A stretch of 64,000 bases of DNA from an uncultured Enterobacterales bacterium (GTDB lineage Bacteria; Myxococcota_A; UBA796; JAFGLY01), in the NCBI GenBank assembly GCA_964512185.1, contig CAZEJJ010000001.1, positions 40,704 through 104,703 of the forward strand, written 5' to 3'. Under the pieces are notes generated by a model. That model made no database searches and had not been told where the DNA came from. It saw nothing but the letters and a program-made list of their open reading frames with translations. Shown piece after piece: positions 52,065-62,156 of the stretch (the stretch's first letter is position 1; each line of letters starts with the position of its first letter). The translations under genes and the position numbers were made by a program.

Positions 52065-55000
52065 ATGCTGCGTCAGATCGCCGTGGTGGCAGTGCTGTTC
52101 GGCATCATGACCTTGCTGCCGGCGCTGTTCGAGGCCCCCACCGGCGCGGTGAACGCCGTGTCGATGGCCGCCTTCGGCTTCATCGTGCTGGCCGCCTACA
52201 CCCTTGGCGAGCTCGCCGAGCGCATCCGCCTGCCTCACATCACCGGCTACCTGGTGGCGGGCCTGGTGTGCGGCCCCCACCTGCTGGGCCTGCTGGACGA
52301 CCAGGTGGTGCAGGATCTCAAGCTCTTCGACGCGCTGGCGGTGGCGCTCATCGGCATCAGCGCCGGCGGCGCCCTGAAGATCGGCGCCCTGCGCCGGGGC
52401 CTGCACCTGGTGGCGGGCGTGATCGTCGCCCAGTTCCTGGCCATCATGCTGGGCATCGGCCTGCTGGTGGGGCTGCTGTCCCTTCCCATCCCAGGCCTGG
52501 GGCTGGGCTTCCTCGTGGAGGGGGACTGGGCGCGCATCCTGGCCGTGGCGTTGCTGCTGGGCACCATCGCCTCCGCCTTCTCCCCCGCGGCCACCATCGC
52601 CGTGATCAACGGCGTGCGCGCCCGGGGCGCGGTCACCGAGAACGTCCTCGGGATCTCGATCCTCAACAACGTCGTCGTGGTGGCGGTCTTCGCCGCCACC
52701 CTGGCCGCCGGGCAGCGCCTGGTGGGTGCCGACGCGGGCGACACGCGGCTGATCATCGAGGTCCTCTCCACGCTGGGTGGCTCCCTGGGTCTGGGCCTGG
52801 TGCTGGGCGTCGTGCTCATGCTGCACCTGCGCTTCGTGGGCACCCACCTGCTCCTGCTGGTGGTGGGGCTGTGCTTCATCTTCACCTGGATCGCCCAGCA
52901 GACCGGCACCGAGCCCGTGCTCGTCTTCATCGTGGCGGGCTTCATCTTCGCCAACGCCAGCCCGCGCAGCGAGCAGCTGTTCACCGTCGTCGATCGGCTC
53001 TCGCTGCCCGTCTACGTGGTCTTCTTCTTCATCGCCGGCGCTGGCCTGCACGTGGACGCCCTCAAGGTGCTGTGGCCGGCGGCCCTGCTGCTCTTCGCGG
53101 GCCGCATGGGCAGCCTGCACCTGGGCACCCTCCTGGGCACGCGGCTGCTCAAGGGTCCAGATGGGCTCGGCCGCTACGGCTGGATGGCCTTCGGGCCCCA
53201 GGCCGGCATCGCCCTGAGCCTGGCCATGGTGGCCGGTCACGCCTTCCCCGAGTGGGGAGGCACCCTCGAGACCCTGGCCGTGGCCACCATCGGGCTGAAC
53301 GAGCTGGTGGGCCCCGCCCTGCTGCAGGCCTCCCTGGGCCTGGTGGGCGAGGCCCGCGCGGATCGCGGGGCCGGGGCCCACGGCGAGTCCGACGCCGAAG
53401 ACACGCGAGACGACCTCCCGGTCCCCGACGGCAGCTACGACCGCGGGGTGCCGGAGTGGCTGCCGGAGCCCGGCAGGCCGCGCCGCGACCCCTGGGGGCC
53501 GGCTCCCATCACCCGATCCAGGCGCCTGCGCGAGCTGGTGGATGGTCTACGCGGCGAGCTGCAGGCGGTGGTGCGCGATCTCAGGGCCGGTCCCGTCTCG
53601 CGCCGGCGGGAACAGGCCGCGCGCTTCCTGGGCCTGCTGCGCCGGGAGTTCCTGCGCGCCCACCGCCACACCACCCTGTCCCTGGTGAGCACACCTGACG
53701 AGCTGGCCTGGCGCGCAGCCCTGCGCCGCGAGCGTGCCGAGCTGGCGCGACGCTGGGAGCAGCTGCTGCTGGACCGCGCCGCCACCACTGACTTCCGCCA
53801 GGACCTGCTGACCTTCCAGGGCATCGTCGCGGCGGTGGACCGCTGCATCGAGGGCTGCCCGGAGGCGCTGGAGGTGCCGCTGGAGGCCGGCTGGGCGGAG
53901 CCCCGGGACGACGATCCCTACCGCCTGGCGGTGGCCCGCTGGCGCCTCAGGACGCGCCGGCGGCTGCTCACCCCCATCCTCGGCGCGCGCGAAGAGACCC
54001 GCGCGGTTGAGCTGCGCGCCCTGGCCCGCTACTGCCTGTCGGGGCAAGCCCCCACCAACCTGGTGGAGGCCGGCGCGCTGATCGCGCTCGGGGAGCGGCA
54101 CCTGCTCTCCCGGGCGCGGGCGGTCTTCGACAGCTGGCACCAGGCCCTCGAACAGCTCCTGTCCAGCCAGCTCTCGGTGGAGGAGCGCCGAGCGGCGCTG
54201 GAGAGCATCCGCGTGGAGATGGAGGAGGACTTCACGCTGGCCTCCCGCGAGGTGGATCGGATCGCAGATGACATCATCAGGGTCACGGCCTCTGCGCTGG
54301 GGCGCGCCTACCGGGAGCTGGTGGGCATGGTGGACCGCGCCGGCACCGCCGAGCTGCCCCAGAGCGGCTACCGCTTCAGCCGCGCCTTCGACGGGCGGCA
54401 GCGCGCGCTGCGGCAGCTGGACGAGGGCTTCGCCGTCTCCCGCGAGCTCACCCGGGGCATCGCCAGCACGCTGGCCATGGAGCTGGAGATGGTCCGCCTG
54501 GGCGTGCACATCCGCGAGGCGGTGGACGAGGCCGCCCAGGGCCTGGGCCGCGATGTGCACGGCAAGCTGCATGTCCAGCTCCGGCGCCTCTCCGAGGCAC
54601 TCGGCCACGCCATCGCGAACCTCCGCAGCCTCCTCTCCGGGGAGAGCCGCCAGCGCGAGGAGCTCCGGGAGGGCATCCAGCAGGGCACCGGTCCCCTGTC
54701 CCATGTCCTGGCGGACGCCCTGGCCATCGGCGAGAAGCTCCGCACCGCCCTCAAGCACGAGGCGGCCCTCGAGCCGCTGCTCCGGTCCCTCAACAGCGGG
54801 ATCGACGATCTCACGGACCGCTTCCTGGTGGTCGTGGACGCCCCGCCCCCGCAGGGTCGCGGCTTCCCATCCCGCGCCCAGACCCGCGACCTGCACTTCC
54901 GCGAGGCGGTGCGCAGCTACATGGAAGCCGAGGCCGGCCGCGACCTCTCCGAGGCGCTGAGCGAGCTGTGCAGCCGGGTGGACGAGGCCTACGTAGGCAT

Positions 55001-56525
55001 CGACGAGGTCCAGCGCGTGCTGGCCTTCAACGCCGACCTGTCAGGGGCGGAGCTCGAGGTGCTGCCCGGCGACCAGGTGCCCGACGAGACCCTCGAGCTG
55101 CTGCGCGAGATGCTGGTGGGCACGCTGCAGCGGCTGGCCAACCGGGTGGACGGGCTGCTGGAGGTGTCTGCCCCCCTGGGCGCCGAGGCGGAGCGGGGCG
55201 TGCGGCGTGCCGTCGCCGGAAACCTGGAGCGCCTCACCGGCATCCTGGTGGAGGGTCGCCACAACGAGCTCAAGCTGCGCCTGGCGCTGGAGTCGGCCTC
55301 CGCTGGAGGCCGGGAGATCACGGGCGTCCTGCGCGAGGTCTCCGAGGGTGTGGAGCAGCTGGGCAAGGTAATCGCGGTGGCGCTGGGGCCGCAGACCGCG
55401 GAGCGCATCCGCGGCTTCCTGGGTGTGCCCGCCGCCGAGGACCTGGCCCGTCCTGGACCCGGTTCCTTCGCTCCCCCCGCCGAGAGAGTGCCGATCCCCA
55501 CCGTGTATCGGCGGCTGTTCAGCGACCAGGGCCTCGAGGGCGGTGATCTGCTCTCCGGTCGCGACTCCGACGTGGAGCGGGCGCGACGCGCCCTGCTGGG
55601 CCGCGGCGGGGGGGTCAACCGCTCCCTGGTGGTCGTGGGCGTCGCCGGGCTGGGCAACACCACCGTGGTGAACGCGCTGGTGCGCGGTCTCCCGGACCAA
55701 GCGAAGATCCACCGGGTGCAGCTCAGCCACTGCCTGCGCCCCCAAGAGGTGGAAGCGCAGATCCTCTGGCCGGCGCGCGGCGGGCGCGACAACGTGGTGG
55801 TGGTCGAAGGCTTCCACTGGCTCTTCTCCATCCGTCCAGGCGGCTTCGATGCCCTGCGGCTGCTGATGGAGGGCATCATCGCCGACCGCGGAAGGAACGC
55901 CTGGCTCATCAGCACCCAGCGCCCGGTCTGGTCCTACGTCACGCGGGTGCTGCCGCTGCAGGACGTCTTCTGCGAGCACTTCGACCTGGGCCCGCAGTCC
56001 GTCGAGGAGCTGCGCAGCACGCTGCTGCTGCGCCACGCCATGAGCGGCTACCGCCTGCACTTCGAGCGACCTCCGGGACACCTGGGCTGGTGGCTGCGGG
56101 AGCTGATCACGCGCAAGTCCGCCGAGGAGGAGCTGATCGAGCGCGACTTCTTCGACCAGCTGCACCGCTCCTCGGGCGGCATCCTCAGCGACGCCCTGCG
56201 GCTGTGGCTGGCCGCGGTGGCCGGGGTCGGCACCAGCACCGACACCATCACCATCGGAGCCCTGCCGGAGCCCCCCCTCGAGCCCATGCGCAGGCTGCCC
56301 CTGGACGTCCTGCTCACCCTGCGCCAGGTGGCGCGCCAGGCCCGCATCACCCCCGAGGACCACGCCTCGCAGTTCCGGCGCGAGATCGCCTGGAGCTCCG
56401 CCTACCTGGTGCGCCTGGAGCACTGGGGCCTGCTCGGCCACGTGGACGACTGCTGCTACCACCTCGCGCCGGAGCTGGCCGGAGCCATCCACCAGGTGCT
56501 GCGCGACAGGGGGCTCGTGGGATGA
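52065..56525 (+). CDS. 1486-aa fusion of an N-terminal cation:proton antiporter domain, a ~750-aa helical region and a C-terminal P-loop-NTPase-like plus winged-helix-like module
   Basis: aa 1-430 form a Na_H_Exchanger-like polytopic domain. The middle is R/E/L-rich and helical. A P-loop-like GVAGLGNTT lies at 55638-55664 (Lys replaced by Asn), followed by VVVVEG (Walker-B-like). The C-terminus LTLRQVARQARITPEDHASQFRR...YLVRLEHWGLL is wHTH-like. The frame is uninterrupted with consistent GC3. Confidence 0.8.
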   Translation: MLRQIAVVAVLFGIMTLLPALFEAPTGAVNAVSMAAFGFIVLAAYTLGELAERIRLPHITGYLVAGLVCGPHLLGLLDDQVVQDLKLFDALAVALIGISAGGALKIGALRRGLHLVAGVIVAQFLAIMLGIGLLVGLLSLPIPGLGLGFLVEGDWARILAVALLLGTIASAFSPAATIAVINGVRARGAVTENVLGISILNNVVVVAVFAATLAAGQRLVGADAGDTRLIIEVLSTLGGSLGLGLVLGVVLMLHLRFVGTHLLLLVVGLCFIFTWIAQQTGTEPVLVFIVAGFIFANASPRSEQLFTVVDRLSLPVYVVFFFIAGAGLHVDALKVLWPAALLLFAGRMGSLHLGTLLGTRLLKGPDGLGRYGWMAFGPQAGIALSLAMVAGHAFPEWGGTLETLAVATIGLNELVGPALLQASLGLVGEARADRGAGAHGESDAEDTRDDLPVPDGSYDRGVPEWLPEPGRPRRDPWGPAPITRSRRLRELVDGLRGELQAVVRDLRAGPVSRRREQAARFLGLLRREFLRAHRHTTLSLVSTPDELAWRAALRRERAELARRWEQLLLDRAATTDFRQDLLTFQGIVAAVDRCIEGCPEALEVPLEAGWAEPRDDDPYRLAVARWRLRTRRRLLTPILGAREETRAVELRALARYCLSGQAPTNLVEAGALIALGERHLLSRARAVFDSWHQALEQLLSSQLSVEERRAALESIRVEMEEDFTLASREVDRIADDIIRVTASALGRAYRELVGMVDRAGTAELPQSGYRFSRAFDGRQRALRQLDEGFAVSRELTRGIASTLAMELEMVRLGVHIREAVDEAAQGLGRDVHGKLHVQLRRLSEALGHAIANLRSLLSGESRQREELREGIQQGTGPLSHVLADALAIGEKLRTALKHEAALEPLLRSLNSGIDDLTDRFLVVVDAPPPQGRGFPSRAQTRDLHFREAVRSYMEAEAGRDLSEALSELCSRVDEAYVGIDEVQRVLAFNADLSGAELEVLPGDQVPDETLELLREMLVGTLQRLANRVDGLLEVSAPLGAEAERGVRRAVAGNLERLTGILVEGRHNELKLRLALESASAGGREITGVLREVSEGVEQLGKVIAVALGPQTAERIRGFLGVPAAEDLARPGPGSFAPPAERVPIPTVYRRLFSDQGLEGGDLLSGRDSDVERARRALLGRGGGVNRSLVVVGVAGLGNTTVVNALVRGLPDQAKIHRVQLSHCLRPQEVEAQILWPARGGRDNVVVVEGFHWLFSIRPGGFDALRLLMEGIIADRGRNAWLISTQRPVWSYVTRVLPLQDVFCEHFDLGPQSVEELRSTLLLRHAMSGYRLHFERPPGHLGWWLRELITRKSAEEELIERDFFDQLHRSSGGILSDALRLWLAAVAGVGTSTDTITIGALPEPPLEPMRRLPLDVLLTLRQVARQARITPEDHASQFRREIAWSSAYLVRLEHWGLLGHVDDCCYHLAPELAGAIHQVLRDRGLVG

Positions 56526-58392: not shown

Positions 58393-58812
58393 ATGTTCCG
58401 TTCCAAGCTCAAGTCCGGTGTGCGCAAGCTCGCCCAGCGGCTCCGCGCTGCCGACGCGCCGCCCCCCCCCGCTTCCACCTGGACCGGCACCGACAGCCCC
58501 GCGGGCCCCGACTATTCCTCTGCTTCCTGCGGCTGCGGCTACGACGAGCCCCAGCAAGAGCCCCAGCCGCCGGGCGAGCCCACCCTCGACCGCCAGCAGG
58601 TGGAGCGCCTGATCCACGAGCGCATCCGCCCCGCCCTGCAGGCCGACGGGGGCGACATCCAGCTGGTGGAGATCCAGGGAGGCGACGTGCACGTGCGCCT
58701 CACCGGGGCCTGCAGCGGCTGTCCTTCCGCCAGCGTCACCCTCGAGATGGGCGTCGAGGCCATGCTGCGCGACGAGCTGGTGGGCTTTGGCCGGGTGGTC
58801 CGGGTCCTCTGA
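58393..58812 (+). CDS. NifU-like (Nfu-type) Fe-S cluster assembly domain protein
   Basis: 139 aa. The C-terminal sequence IRPALQADGGDIQLVEIQGGDVHVRLTGACSGCPSASVTLEMGVE carries the CxxC motif typical of the NifU C-terminal domain. Confidence 0.85.
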   Translation: MFRSKLKSGVRKLAQRLRAADAPPPPASTWTGTDSPAGPDYSSASCGCGYDEPQQEPQPPGEPTLDRQQVERLIHERIRPALQADGGDIQLVEIQGGDVHVRLTGACSGCPSASVTLEMGVEAMLRDELVGFGRVVRVL

Positions 58813-59314: not shown

Positions 59315-59610
59315 GCCCTGTTCTCGCGGCATCAGTATGCGGGCGGTCCAGCCCCGTGCGGCGGGGTGGCGCCCCCGCAGGCGAGGTCCTGCGCGTCTTC
59401 CAACGCAGCGAGCCCGTCAAAGGACCATGGTCCGGAGCCCTGCAGAGCGCGCCGAAGTCCGGAGCCGGCGACTATTGCAGAGTCGTGGTGCGAGTAGAGG
59501 CCCCACGGCATCGGCCCTTGGCGCGTCGTATGAACGCCACCATCGCTGCGAGCACCCCCACCGCCTCCAAGTGCCGCCACCCCACGCCTTCAACAACCAC
59601 CATCCCCTGT

Positions 59611-59658
59611 CCGGTCGTAACTACCGACCCTGGCGCCCACCCCCCAGGGTTACGACCG
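59611..59658. repeat. Palindromic element copy 1 (48 nt)
   Basis: Terminal 10-bp inverted repeat CGGTCGTAAC ... GTTACGACCG enclosing an inner CCCTGG/CCAGGG pairing. Confidence 0.85.
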
Positions 59659-59673
59659 CCACAAAGCTCCGAT

Positions 59674-59722
59674 CCGGTCGTAGCCCCCCATCCTGACGCC
59701 TCACCCCCCAGGGTTACGACCG
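59674..59722. repeat. Palindromic element copy 2 (49 nt, divergent interior)
   Basis: CCGGTCGTAg ... GGGTTACGACCG. The termini are shared with copies 1 and 3; the interior differs. Confidence 0.8.
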
Positions 59723-59737
59723 CATCCCGGCCTTCCC

Positions 59738-59785
59738 CCGGTCGTAACTACCGACCCTGGCGCCCACCCTCGGGGGTTACGACCG
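59738..59785. repeat. Palindromic element copy 3 (48 nt)
   Basis: Nearly identical to copy 1 except near the 3' inner arm (CCCTCGGGG instead of CCCCCCAGG). The copies have a 63-64 nt period. Confidence 0.85.
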
Positions 59786-60045
59786 TTCGAGCGTTGTGGC
59801 GGGTGGTCCTCGAGGATCCGGTGACCTGCCCTCACCGCCAGGCGCCCATGAGAGTCCGCCCAGTCGTGCTCGCGCCTGCCCCCCGGGCTCGGATCGCCTC
59901 CGGCGACCGCCGCCCGCTGCTTCGCAGCACCACCCTCGCGACACGCCCGCTGGCTCTCGCGATGATCCGGGACAGGCAGCACGCCCCTTGCTAATGCAAG
60001 GGCCGAGCCGCCATCCTGACGCACTCTGCCAACACAGGAGCCCCC

Positions 60046-61548
60046 ATGTCCGACGGTGATCGCGTGCTCGACTACCGCGACCACAGGCGCAGCCTGGGCA
60101 GCAACCGCTTCGTCTACGCCGTGGTGTCGCGGCGCGCCCGCGGCCTGTCCATCGGCGTCAACCTGAACCCGGGTCGGGACTGCAGCTTCGCCTGCCGCTA
60201 CTGCCAGGTGGATCGCCGCGGCCAGGAGACCACCGCGCTGCCCGTGGACGTGCGGCGCCTGGGCGCCGAGCTCGACCAGCTGCTGGCCCGCGTGGCCTCC
60301 CAAGAGCTCTGGCAGAGCCCCCCCTTCGACAGCGTCCAGCCCACGCTGCGCCGGGTGGCAGACATCGCCATCGCGGGAGACGGCGAGCCGCTGGCCTGCG
60401 CGCAGTTCTCCGCGGTCGTGGAGCGCGTAGCCGAGCTGCGCGATGCCCACGGCCTGCGGCAGGTCCCCATACGCCTGCTCTCCAACGCAGCCCTGCTGCA
60501 CAAGCCCGAGCACAGGGCGGGACTGGAGCGCCTGCGAGCCCTGCACGGCGAGCTGTGGCTCAAGCTGGACGCCGGCAGCGCGCGTGGGCTCGAAGCGGCC
60601 AACGGCACCCAGATCCCCCTGCGACGCATACTGGACAACATCACCAGCGCGGCTCGGCAGGGCCCCGTGGTCATCCAGAGCCTCTTCATGCGCTACCGCG
60701 GCGAGGCCCCCGCCCCAGGAGAGATCGCCGCCTGGGTGGAGCAGCTGGCCGGGATCGCAGCGCGGGGCGGCCAGCTCCGCGAGGTGCAGGTCACCACCGT
60801 GGCGCGGCGTCCGGCCGACCTGGGCTGCACGGCGCTGGGCCGGCGGGCCCTGCAGCAGATCGCCCATCAGGCGACGGCTCGAGGCCTGCACTGCTCGGTG
60901 CATCCGGGGACCTGGGGCAGGCGGCCGGTGCTGGTCACCGCCGGGGCCACGCGCAATCCAGTGGACAGCATGCGCTGCATCAGCGCCAACAGCAGCGGTC
61001 GCACGGGGGTGGGCCTGGCCCGCACCCTGCAGGCCGATCATCGGCTGCACCTGCTGGCCAGCCCCCAGGCGAGCCTGCGCGCCGCGCAGGCCGGCATCGA
61101 GAGCGTGGAGGGCTTCGGCAGCACGCGGGATCTGCTGCTGCGCATGGAGCGCTGGGTGCGCGACAACCCGCGGGGCATCGTCATCCACGCCGCGGCGGTG
61201 GGAGACTACGAAGCGGCAGCCCAGACCGGAAAGGTGGACAGCGGCAGGGCCGAGTGGGTGCTGCGGCTGCAGCCCACCCCCAAGATCCTGGACCGCATCC
61301 GCGGCTGGGACGGTGGGCAGCTGGTGCTGGTCAGCTTCAAGGCCGCAGCGCCGGACACCTCCCACGATCAGCTGGTCCAGATCGCCCGCAGCCAGCTGGA
61401 ACGCACAGGCTCCGACCTGGTCTTCGCCAATGTGCTCGGGCGCCTCGGGGCCGACATAGCGCTGGTGGCCGCTGTCGGTGAGCGCTGGTTCCGGGAACGG
61501 AGCGCGGCCCTGGAGGCGCTCACCGCTCACCCGCTGCTGGACGAGTAG
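60046..61548 (+). CDS. Fusion of a radical SAM domain and a CoaB-like (DFP / phosphopantothenate-cysteine ligase-like) domain
   Basis: 500 aa, AGGAG RBS. N-terminal cluster motif CSFACRYC plus GDGEPL. C-terminal PVLVTAGATRNPVDSMRCISANSSGRTG ... HAAAVGDYE ... VSFKAA ... DLVFANV parallels CoaB motifs. Confidence 0.8.
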   Translation: MSDGDRVLDYRDHRRSLGSNRFVYAVVSRRARGLSIGVNLNPGRDCSFACRYCQVDRRGQETTALPVDVRRLGAELDQLLARVASQELWQSPPFDSVQPTLRRVADIAIAGDGEPLACAQFSAVVERVAELRDAHGLRQVPIRLLSNAALLHKPEHRAGLERLRALHGELWLKLDAGSARGLEAANGTQIPLRRILDNITSAARQGPVVIQSLFMRYRGEAPAPGEIAAWVEQLAGIAARGGQLREVQVTTVARRPADLGCTALGRRALQQIAHQATARGLHCSVHPGTWGRRPVLVTAGATRNPVDSMRCISANSSGRTGVGLARTLQADHRLHLLASPQASLRAAQAGIESVEGFGSTRDLLLRMERWVRDNPRGIVIHAAAVGDYEAAAQTGKVDSGRAEWVLRLQPTPKILDRIRGWDGGQLVLVSFKAAAPDTSHDQLVQIARSQLERTGSDLVFANVLGRLGADIALVAAVGERWFRERSAALEALTAHPLLDE

Positions 61549-62156
61549 GCCCCCAGCGGGAGCTCCAGCACGCGCTCCCCTGCCCCTCGTCCACGGGCGC
61601 GGAGCACTCGGAACCTCAGGCGCCCGTCGGCGCTGCCCAGGGTCTGCAGGCGCAGGGAGGCGGGCAGGGACTGCTCGGCCCGCTCGGCCAGCACCAGCAC
61701 GGTGCTGCCGCCCTGCTCAGCTGCCCGAAGCAGGCGGTAGCCGGCCCGGCCCAGGGGCCCCGGATCCAGCAGCACGGTGGCCGCCACCCCCCCGGAGCCC
61801 GCCAGCTGCTCGGCGGCCCAGGCTGCCCGCTCGACACCGGCGCGCACCACCAGCAGGTGGGACCAGGCCAGCTGTGGCAGCCCAGGCGGGTGCAGGCGCT
61901 CCAGGACATCGACGATCGCCACAGGGCGGCCGGCCCAGCTGCTGCTGGACAGCAGGGGGAGCACGAGCCCCAGCCGGCCGGACCCCGGGAGCCCGGCGAT
62001 CTCGGCCAGCCCCGGCCGAGGCCAGCCTCCCACGACGGCGTCGAGGGCGGGGAGCCCCGTGGTCGCGCCCTGCCGGCTCACCGGTGCCGACAGCAGACCC
62101 TTGGACTCGAGCTGACGACGCAACACGGCCAGGGCGGTGGCGCGATCCTGGGACAT
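61527..62156 (-). CDS. imuA: ImuA-like SOS mutagenesis protein (RecA/SulA-like fold)
   Basis: 209 aa. TGLPALDAVVGGWPRPGLAEIAGLPGSGRLGL ... LLVVRAGVERAAWAAEQLAGSGGVAATVLLD ... RLLRAAEQGGSTVLVL resembles ImuA. A perfect SOS-box palindrome lies immediately upstream. Confidence 0.6.
   Translation of the reverse strand: MSQDRATALAVLRRQLESKGLLSAPVSRQGATTGLPALDAVVGGWPRPGLAEIAGLPGSGRLGLVLPLLSSSSWAGRPVAIVDVLERLHPPGLPQLAWSHLLVVRAGVERAAWAAEQLAGSGGVAATVLLDPGPLGRAGYRLLRAAEQGGSTVLVLAERAEQSLPASLRLQTLGSADGRLRFRVLRARGRGAGERVLELPLGAYSSSSG

Follow-up and report, generated by a model that had tools for sequence, protein, structure and literature searches.

A radical SAM domain fused to a CoaB-like domain with altered catalytic residues in a few uncultured bacterial lineages

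CoaBC proteins (Dfp) consist of two abutting catalytic domains, a C-terminal one with the CoaB fold and an N-terminal one, CoaC, that is a flavin mononucleotide-binding HFCD flavoprotein. We describe here a protein with the same two-domain layout whose N-terminal partner is instead a radical S-adenosylmethionine (SAM) domain, and in which no flavoprotein domain is detectable. It is encoded in a 64,000-nucleotide stretch of genomic DNA from an uncultured bacterium (contig CAZEJJ010000001.1 of assembly GCA_964512185.1, positions 40,704 to 104,703), hereafter called the window, where the gene occupies positions 60046–61548 of the plus strand and specifies 500 amino acids plus a stop codon. The architecture is a novel combination of two known folds, the ligase half of which has altered catalytic residues, and it is confined to a few uncultured lineages.

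The closest described forms of the C-terminal half are phosphopantothenate-cysteine ligases (PPCS, CoaB), namely the streptococcal monofunctional enzyme (2gk4; TIGR02114/PRK06732) and the CoaB half of a CoaBC named Opitutaceae by NCBI. With PPCS it has in common the Rossmann-like DFP fold, the TAGxT...DxxR...SSGxxG loop and the AAVxDY motif with its cation-binding Asp, and with 2gk4 and the CoaC-fused relatives it also shares a loop lysine followed by xxSG; TPKI, FK and a terminal AN are common as well. It departs from PPCS in having Ala for the Asn of the ISN motif and Asn for the Glu of the TREP motif, in missing a 9-residue loop after AN, in scoring at about one third of the equivalog cutoffs, in having no CoaC partner, and in a distribution limited almost wholly to metagenome-assembled genomes (MAGs) of Myxococcota.

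For the N-terminal half, the described enzymes to compare are PFL activase (3c8f), DesII (8hzv), a viperin-like enzyme (9dfn) and BlsE (7vob), which have the same partial (beta/alpha)6 barrel, an N-terminal CX3CX2C motif, a GGE-type motif, a size of ~250–290 residues and no auxiliary cluster. Identity to them is, however, only 10–19%, with no family-level match to a hidden Markov model (HMM; 11–18 bits for viperin against a cutoff of 180), and the N-terminal half of the fusion has an N-terminal extension of its own and no glycyl-radical enzyme, sugar-nucleotide gene or kinase neighbouring it. TYW1 (COG0731) belongs to the same superfamily and has a core domain of roughly matching size, but its structure (2z2u) is Foldseek match 49 (E 1.5e-3), no TYW1-type NCBIfam or Pfam model matches, the radical SAM half has neither second-cluster cysteines nor a flavodoxin domain, and its family is bacterial and widespread.

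One protein with two folds

Both folds, their motifs and the substitutions described below are established for the fusion protein. The gene is present in the open reading frame listing and was also called from codon usage (by a log-odds caller suited to the high-GC DNA of the window); it starts with ATG, its coding signal is strong by codon usage, and an AGGAG ribosome-binding site read from the sequence lies at 60036–60040 (plus strand), 5 nucleotides before the start codon. Pfam DFP (PF04127) matches residues 293–466 with 97.5 bits (E 1.1e-27, cutoff 22), and Radical_SAM (PF04055) matches residues 41–212 with 26.6 bits (E 7.5e-6), slightly below the gathering score of 29.5. The radical SAM call is secure despite this score, because the motifs are present, more than 2000 homologues have precomputed PF04055 matches, distant relatives score 35–53.5 bits, and both the AlphaFold model and the structural matches agree with it: the 47 solved structures that a Foldseek search with the radical SAM model returned at E <= 1e-3 are practically all radical SAM enzymes. 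The model of the whole fusion has a pLDDT of 92.8 and a pTM of 0.88, with a pLDDT of 90.6 for the radical SAM domain.

All features of the gene lie on the plus strand. The radical SAM domain, a partial TIM barrel with a single cluster, covers residues 1–290 (60046–60915), with PF04055, AlphaFold and Foldseek as evidence; its [4Fe-4S]-binding CX3CX2C motif, CSFACRYC, spans residues 46–53 (60181–60204; C46, C50 and C53), and its "GGE"-type SAM-binding motif, GDGEPL, spans residues 111–116 (60376–60393), of which G111, G113, E114 and P115 are invariant. The CoaB-like DFP-fold domain occupies residues 291–500 (60916–61545). At the junction, HPGTWGRRPV (residues 286–295; 60901–60930), placed by the secondary structure of the model and the alignment of fusions, the last radical SAM strand leads through about 5 residues into the first DFP-like strand, and H286, P287, G288, G291, R292 and R293 are invariant among fusions.

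The identical architecture, 498–500 residues long, recurs in assemblies held by NCBI, ENA, JGI and Logan, where it forms 15 clusters at the 90% identity level; it is found in six GTDB species-representative MAGs and in four JGI or ENA metagenome contigs. We identified 16 full-length orthologues at 61–64% identity, and the junction VHPGxWGRRPVL is kept in all fusion proteins. Out of 1.84 billion 50%-identity representatives covered by an exhaustive HMMER pass, exactly one has both domains, the other strong matches being single-domain proteins. A neighbour-joining tree built from radical SAM domains recovers the 16 fusions as a monophyletic group, so the fusion is one event in one narrow clade.

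The original prediction for this gene, made from the DNA letters without database searches, had read it as a radical SAM enzyme with CSFACRYC and GDGEPL motifs joined to a DFP domain, and profile and fold searches uphold both domains and both motifs. It had also named three ways in which it might be wrong, none of which holds. An assembly artefact is ruled out, since one and the same junction occurs in at least 16 independent assemblies; an unrelated Rossmann family for the C-terminal half is ruled out by Pfam DFP, the PDB profile search and Foldseek; and, in keeping with its statement that it could assign the architecture to no characterised pathway, no curated NCBIfam model reaches its cutoff on the fusion, the PADLOC defence catalogue gives no match, and full-text searches of a literature library returned nothing relevant on a radical SAM plus CoaB-like architecture or on either parent family.

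The CoaB-like half and the short-DFP family

The C-terminal half is 50–67% identical to standalone proteins of about 201–236 residues (typically ~205), which we call short DFP. In the PDB profile search with this half the monofunctional CoaB of Streptococcus pneumoniae (2gk4) is closest (E 3.8e-29), CoaB of Mycobacterium smegmatis, Bacillus anthracis and Escherichia coli (4qji, 5int, 1u7u) match at E about 1e-17, and the human and yeast proteins are matched too; Foldseek TM-scores, normalised to the target chain, are 0.66–0.74 for standalone bacterial CoaB chains. Apparent N-terminal extensions of some standalone DFP matches into the radical SAM tail were rejected as non-coding alignment overhang.

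Scanning GTDB with motif anchors, one genome for each species, we identified 156 loci, and the 80 of these that were listed come from MAGs labelled Myxococcota, Deltaproteobacteria or Proteobacteria, or from clearly mislabelled high-GC contigs. The family is found almost only in Myxococcota MAGs, and its metagenome matches are mostly marine or freshwater. A gammaproteobacterial host for the DFP paralogue was considered and rejected, as the "Cognaticolwellia", "Enterobacterales" and "Klebsiella" contigs have a GC content of 0.62–0.76 and were treated as mislabelled. Public records give many such contigs (L013, L014, L016, L017, L026, L028, L035, L049 and others, with a GC content of 0.62–0.76) the titles "uncultured Enterobacterales", "Enterobacteriaceae", "Klebsiella pneumoniae" or "Cognaticolwellia sp."; the genes next to short DFP on several of them are also found on contigs with a Myxococcota label, and the titles are almost certainly wrong.

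We took a residue census of 134 short-DFP sequences, including the window protein. Invariant or nearly so are G-x-T-R, D-x-x-R, S-S-G-x-T-G, A-V-G-D-Y, a loop K-x-x-S-G, F-K-A and a terminal A-N; AVGDY, the loop K and the loop S are each present in 134/134. The family has ~38 invariant positions, nucleotide-site residues included. This invariance of the nucleotide site across the 134 members argues for a functional active site in the CoaB-like domain, not a decayed domain. In the fusion, the nucleotide/substrate loop TAGATRNPVDSMRCISANSSGRTG (residues 298–321; 60937–61008) was placed by alignment to E. coli, M. smegmatis and S. pneumoniae CoaB, and AAAVGDY (equivalent to AAVADY/F) spans residues 382–388 (61189–61209). 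GKVDSG stands in place of the KxKK loop at residues 395–400 (61228–61245), with an invariant Lys396; FKAA (CoaB GFAAE) spans residues 431–434 (61336–61347), its F, K and A invariant, and DLVFAN (DLICAN in E. coli CoaB, by alignment) residues 457–462 (61414–61431). Asp387 of the AAAVGDY motif corresponds to D281 of M. smegmatis CoaB, a cation ligand (PMC7794376), and the role of R207 in CoaB as a nucleotide-site residue is taken from the same work (PMC7794376).

Most of the CoaB motifs that the original prediction had listed (AAAVGDY, FKAA and DLVFAN), as well as the GKVDSG replacement of KxKK, are thus found where it put them, but its "RxISNxSSG" is wrong, the sequence being RCISANSSG. The likeness to CoaB accordingly stands as to the DFP fold and fails as to a normal CoaB, as the position of the catalytic Asn is Ala. 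This residue, Ala314, was matched to E. coli N210 of the ISN motif by HMM alignments without insertions or deletions, and is Ala in 130/134 short-DFP sequences; conservation in the family does not extend to the Asn after Ala314. The position of E. coli E200, in TREP, is Asn304 in the fusion and Asn in 134/134 short-DFP sequences. E. coli, M. smegmatis and S. pneumoniae CoaB retain both Glu and Asn at these positions, and CoaC-fused CoaBC relatives from the metagenome scan, one of them the protein named Opitutaceae by NCBI, have the Glu in 119/120 and the Asn in 120/120. A further difference from E. coli CoaB is a 9-residue deletion after DLVFAN, by which the GFNSDNN-type C-terminal loop is gone.

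HMMER and MAFFT differ on the lysine of the KxKK loop. The former pairs K396 with the first lysine of the E. coli and M. smegmatis KIKK segment, the latter puts it 3 residues later, and the other two KxKK lysines are missing in the fusion, likewise in 2gk4 and in the CoaC-fused CoaBC relatives. The latter share HAAAVGDY, KxxSG and FK with the short-DFP family, so that replacement of KxKK is compatible with a real CoaBC. By the aligned sequences, then, it is the changes from Glu to Asn and from Asn to Ala, not the loss of KxKK, that set the short-DFP family apart from PPCS. Among the L171-related CoaBC proteins themselves (L169, L171, L175 and P0411–P0530), KxxSG replaces KxKK in at least 53/120, the SSGK motif has Arg instead of Lys, and the catalytic Asn is kept; this CoaBC subtype is similar to the monofunctional CoaB of streptococci. 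A database search with a CoaC-fused relative returned a CoaBC type that carries the NCBI name Opitutaceae and not Myxococcota.

N210 mutants of E. coli CoaB reportedly make 4'-phosphopantothenoyl-cytidine monophosphate (CMP) with no cysteine condensation, and K289 of the KxKK loop is said to be required for acyl-cytidylate formation; a literature search on these two residues gave no useful result. The PDB sequences of E. coli CoaB, including that of the acyl-CMP complex 1u7z, carry Asp at the N210 position, and an Asp there in an entry that traps the acyl-CMP is consistent with the reported stall of N210 mutants after the first half-reaction.

Scores against the curated CoaB and CoaBC equivalog models are low for the whole family. 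The fusion reaches 73.1 bits with TIGR00521 (cutoff 219.7), 67.3 with TIGR02114 (217.2) and 78.6 with NF005231 (265), and standalone short-DFP proteins are in a similar range, 63–89 bits overall against cutoffs of 217–265. A tblastn search with E. coli CoaC found no CoaC-like flavoprotein in the window or up to 6–8 kb from ~140 short-DFP genes, and matched only three true CoaBC loci (L169, L171 and L175). The low equivalog scores, the lack of a nearby CoaC and the restriction of CoaC matches to true CoaBC loci all speak against a role of the short-DFP family in CoA synthesis.

The radical SAM family and the origin of the fusion

The N-terminal half is 50–57% identical to more than 2000 standalone proteins of 277–305 residues. 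All 16 fusions and 54 family members have, without change, the CX3CX2C motif, with an aromatic residue before its third Cys, and the GxGEP motif; the radical SAM domain keeps these motifs and ~35 family-invariant residues and looks active. No further conserved cysteines occur in this half across the same fusions and family members. The family has its own invariant, basic N-terminal extension, LDxxDHRR...YVYAVVSRRxxGLSIGxNLNP.

The top Foldseek match of the radical SAM domain is the PFL-activating enzyme (E 1.5e-7), and the next best structures are DesII, a Sphaerobacter methyltransferase, viperin-like enzymes with bound cytidine triphosphate (CTP), SkfB and BlsE, all at 10–19% identity. Weak HMM matches are to viperin, MoaA and a tungsten-cofactor maturase; the viperin model NF038283 gives the fusion 11 bits against its cutoff of 180, and PADLOC pVip gives 17.8 bits for one standalone relative only. 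Several of these structural and HMM relatives use nucleotide-linked small molecules, a weak hint of a nucleotide-linked substrate that would fit a CTP-binding partner. Members of the family carry the labels Acidobacteriota, Vicinamibacteria, Planctomycetota, Holophagaceae, Fibrobacteria and "Deltaproteobacteria", and at 24–27% identity the family extends to Parabacteroides, Bacteroides, Phocaeicola and Collinsella. No curated NCBIfam or Pfam family model covers the half, and the JGI labels "wyosine synthetase" (COG0731) and "PFL-activating enzyme" are generic. Longer radical SAM relatives showed no informative extra domains. A ~1020–1060-residue protein encoded after the radical SAM gene in two loci (L005 and L093) was dropped as a lead: it has no Pfam domain on record, its N terminus suggests secretion, and it is absent from the window.

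Both halves of the fusion originate from standalone families, and the loci of relatives indicate how they may have met. The window and the other fusion loci have the gene order TrkH, a 1486–1499-residue Na+/H+ exchanger fusion, mechanosensitive channel, membrane protein, NifU, lipoprotein, fusion and ImuA-like gene, the last on the minus strand. At the same place JAFGLY01 (L007) has NifU, lipoprotein, a standalone short-DFP gene, a PP-loop gene and the ImuA-like gene, with no radical SAM gene. In JBFYZZ01 (L018) the order is NifU, a small minus-strand open reading frame, a radical SAM gene, selD, short DFP and a GuaA-C-terminal-like PP-loop gene; the last four are on one strand, and the last three of them are joined by 4-bp overlaps. 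The L018 radical SAM protein is sister to the fusion clade in the neighbour-joining tree, and from this unfused arrangement of the same order in a sister lineage, the fusion looks like an end-to-start join of already neighbouring genes through ~5 linker residues. The original prediction had proposed looking at the distribution and neighbourhood of the fusion, and what emerges is a narrow clade, a single event and conserved NifU- and ImuA-like flanks.

The NifU-like gene upstream of the fusion (58393–58812, plus strand; 139 residues, Pfam NifU 90.9 bits) is a conserved neighbour, also at loci with an unfused DFP-like gene. The ImuA-like gene (61527–62156, minus strand; 209 residues) is convergent with the fusion, overlapping it by 22 bp with its 3' end, scores 70 against 150 with the NCBIfam model ImuA_translesion, and is present in all syntenic loci (L001, L007, L012, L013, L015, L018 and L023); in the window it is an orphan, with no imuB or dnaE2 beside it. 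Farther upstream, the 1486-residue protein at 52065–56525 (plus strand) has an N-terminal Na+/H+ exchanger membrane domain and ~1000 more residues that include a P-loop-like segment; its 1499-residue counterpart in L001 is annotated with PF00999 only. The GC content of the host window is 0.67–0.76, and its genes (minCDE, trkAH, pilB, moeA, rlmN and others) are Myxococcota-type chromosome content.

A 730-bp gap directly upstream of the fusion (59315–60045) has no coding signal. It contains, at 59611–59785, three tandem copies, 63–64 nt apart, of a palindromic ~48-nt unit, CCGGTCGTAAC...GGTTACGACCG, and the region folds as RNA much better than shuffled versions do (z = -6.5). No further copy of the unit turned up elsewhere in the window or across 1.7 Mb of related loci, it matches nothing in Rfam, and no riboswitch or other known RNA was found upstream of the gene in the window or at nine short-DFP loci. 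Where the window has the repeat-bearing gap, related fusion loci have a 108-residue lipoprotein gene.

Other neighbours of short-DFP genes offer few leads. The frequent ones are PNP and cytidine deaminase (divergent) and APS kinase (convergent), between which a short-DFP gene on its own typically lies, and which we rejected as operon partners because they are housekeeping genes on other strands. A selD gene is near the DFP-like gene in two lineages only, L018 and L124, and in each (L018, 8566–9658; L124, 9199–10161) it is preceded by an in-frame stop (inferred to be TGA) at the position of the active-site Cys/Sec (...CAG-stop...); both SelD proteins are probably selenoproteins. The 320-residue GuaA-C-terminal-like PP-loop protein (L007, 6657–7619; L018, 10329–11291) scores 297 bits against a cutoff of 339 and could represent either one subunit of a split GMP synthase or a paralogue acting on something else; its gene overlaps the end of short DFP by 4 bp in L007 and L018 and has no counterpart in the window.

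What the fusion protein may do

Our favoured though tentative reading, to which we give a probability of roughly 0.4, is that the fusion is a bifunctional enzyme that couples a nucleotide-dependent activation or ligation to a radical step outside CoA synthesis. The pathway would be an uncharacterised small-molecule route, probably nucleotide-linked. The C-terminal domain would be a nucleotide-dependent (probably CTP-dependent) ligase or activating domain of the CoaB fold, having retained the TAGxT loop, DxxR, the Asp of AVGDY and the loop Lys for nucleotide binding and acyl-nucleotidylate formation, and having lost Asn210 (to Ala), Glu200 (to Asn) and the GFxxDxN loop (deleted), which would serve the cysteine-condensing half-reaction. 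With these features gone, the domain probably activates a different carboxylate from 4'-phosphopantothenate, or hands it to a nucleophile that is not cysteine. The N-terminal domain would be a minimal radical SAM enzyme with one [4Fe-4S] cluster, which would split SAM to give the 5'-deoxyadenosyl radical and take a hydrogen atom from the molecule on which the ligase domain acts, whichever of the two steps comes first, with the short, rigid junction favouring hand-over between the two sites. In all this we infer that either domain is catalytically active, that CTP is used, that the reactions are coupled and what kind of substrate is involved.

Coupling is favoured by three kinds of evidence: the fusion has been kept, with an invariant junction, in a clade diverged to 61–64% identity; the model places the two domains with confidence (pTM 0.88); and the unfused radical SAM and short-DFP genes of the sister lineage L018 already lie in one operon-like cluster. 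Both families also occur together in the JAEUKK01 MAG, though on different contigs. The first three points count against an unlikely alternative, namely that two independent enzymes were joined by a deletion that removed a SelD-like gene and intergenic DNA, and that the join was kept only because both activities survive. That explanation draws on the single event in one narrow clade, on an end-to-start join that left ~5 linker residues and cost no domain sequence, on the sister lineage with the same gene order and selD in between, and on there being no other conserved linkage of the two families.

Several observations weigh against the coupled, bifunctional enzyme. Gene adjacency and fusion alike go back to a single event in a single lineage, which confines the coupling evidence to that event and makes a Rosetta-stone argument weak. 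At about 60 Myxococcota loci the short-DFP gene stands alone, with the nearest 8 kb free of radical SAM genes. The radical SAM family, for its part, does not need a DFP partner, since it is present in phyla in which we saw no short-DFP gene, and its standalone gene has no conserved neighbours, these differing in all eight contexts examined. The likeness to enzymes with nucleotide substrates is generic (TM-scores, normalised to the query, of 0.46–0.61 at 10–19% identity). Finally, Asn304 at the E200 position could replace the lost Asn functionally, in which case the domain might still be a PPCS.

This last point opens onto an account that we also think unlikely, and slightly more so than the deletion: the C-terminal domain would be the real PPCS of the lineage, a divergent, type-III-like CoaB in CoA synthesis, and the radical SAM half an unrelated housekeeping enzyme or a substitute for CoaC. 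Its fold and most of its motifs are indeed CoaB-like and closest to 2gk4 (E 3.8e-29), KxxSG, HAAAVGDY and FK also occur in NCBI-named CoaC-fused CoaBC, and the order of partner and CoaB domain mirrors CoaBC; moreover, no second CoaB-like sequence is present in the 64-kb window, Asn304 is family-invariant and in the same loop as the lost Asn, whose role it might assume, and there is no cultured Myxococcota genome among the 80 GTDB matches listed, so the CoA genes could differ from those of cultured lineages. Yet the Asn of E. coli, M. smegmatis and S. pneumoniae CoaB and of 120/120 CoaC-fused relatives is Ala in 130/134 family members, the GFNSDNN-type C-terminal loop is deleted, scores are one third of the equivalog cutoffs, and a CoaC gene is neither fused nor nearby in ~140 loci. 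The radical SAM family is, in addition, common in phyla that we presume to have ordinary CoaBC, and its gene is unlinked to short DFP in most Myxococcota.

Modification of tRNA or rRNA is improbable, more so than either of these. Here the radical SAM half would alter a base as TYW1, Elp3 or RlmN do, and the CoaB-like half would attach a small amine to a nucleoside bearing a carboxylate, or vice versa. The JGI label "wyosine synthetase" (COG0731), the strongly basic and invariant N-terminal motifs (DHRR, SRR, R102 and R254) and the apparently monocistronic, housekeeping-like nature of both families, as in many RNA-modifying enzymes, speak for it, whereas TYW1 (2z2u) and Elp3 are weak structural matches (rank 48–49, E about 1.5e-3) and the protein has neither auxiliary-cluster cysteines nor a THUMP, PUA or TRAM RNA-binding domain. 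We also know of no CoaB-fold enzyme that acts on RNA. Least probable of all, and very much so, is a non-catalytic CoaB-like domain, a nucleotide-sensing or dimerising module that would regulate or scaffold the radical SAM enzyme. The loss of the catalytic residue and of the substrate loop would suit such a module, as would the fact that CoaB domains dimerise through a beta-sandwich and, in mycobacteria, depend on their fused partner (PMC7794376); but the same substitutions are found in standalone ~205-residue short-DFP proteins that have no partner, and ~38 positions are invariant, nucleotide-site residues included.

A wider form of the bifunctional reading, which we put forward as a doubtful conjecture, would make the short-DFP and ~280-residue radical SAM families an unrecognised two-enzyme route, in which CTP-dependent activation of a carboxylate and a radical transformation provide uncultured aquatic Myxococcota with a new cofactor or metabolite, either derived from a nucleotide or resembling pantothenate, with the fusion as its only natural covalent link. 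In a more extreme version, the radical SAM half may replace the flavoprotein CoaC, giving a flavin-independent CoaBC.

For genome annotation, the consequences concern ~150 short-DFP genes that are named phosphopantothenoylcysteine synthetase/decarboxylase although their products have neither a decarboxylase domain nor the Asn of all compared PPCS. We regard this CoaBC label as an annotation error, and with that domain and that residue missing, metabolic reconstructions of these MAGs may wrongly count a CoA step. In the fusion, too, the product of a CoaB relative without the key catalytic asparagine is probably something other than coenzyme A. To our knowledge the CoaB fold has so far been known for one reaction only, and its recruitment to a new acyl-nucleotidylate reaction, if true, would widen CoaB-fold chemistry. 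No curated model or examined neighbourhood gives a function for the radical SAM family, whose members come from Acidobacteriota, Planctomycetota, Fibrobacteria and Myxococcota and whose more distant relatives occur in gut Bacteroidales and Collinsella. The fusion links this orphan family to a second one, so that testing the fused protein is the simplest route to a substrate for both, and it is a reasonable experimental lead toward the function of a widespread radical SAM family.

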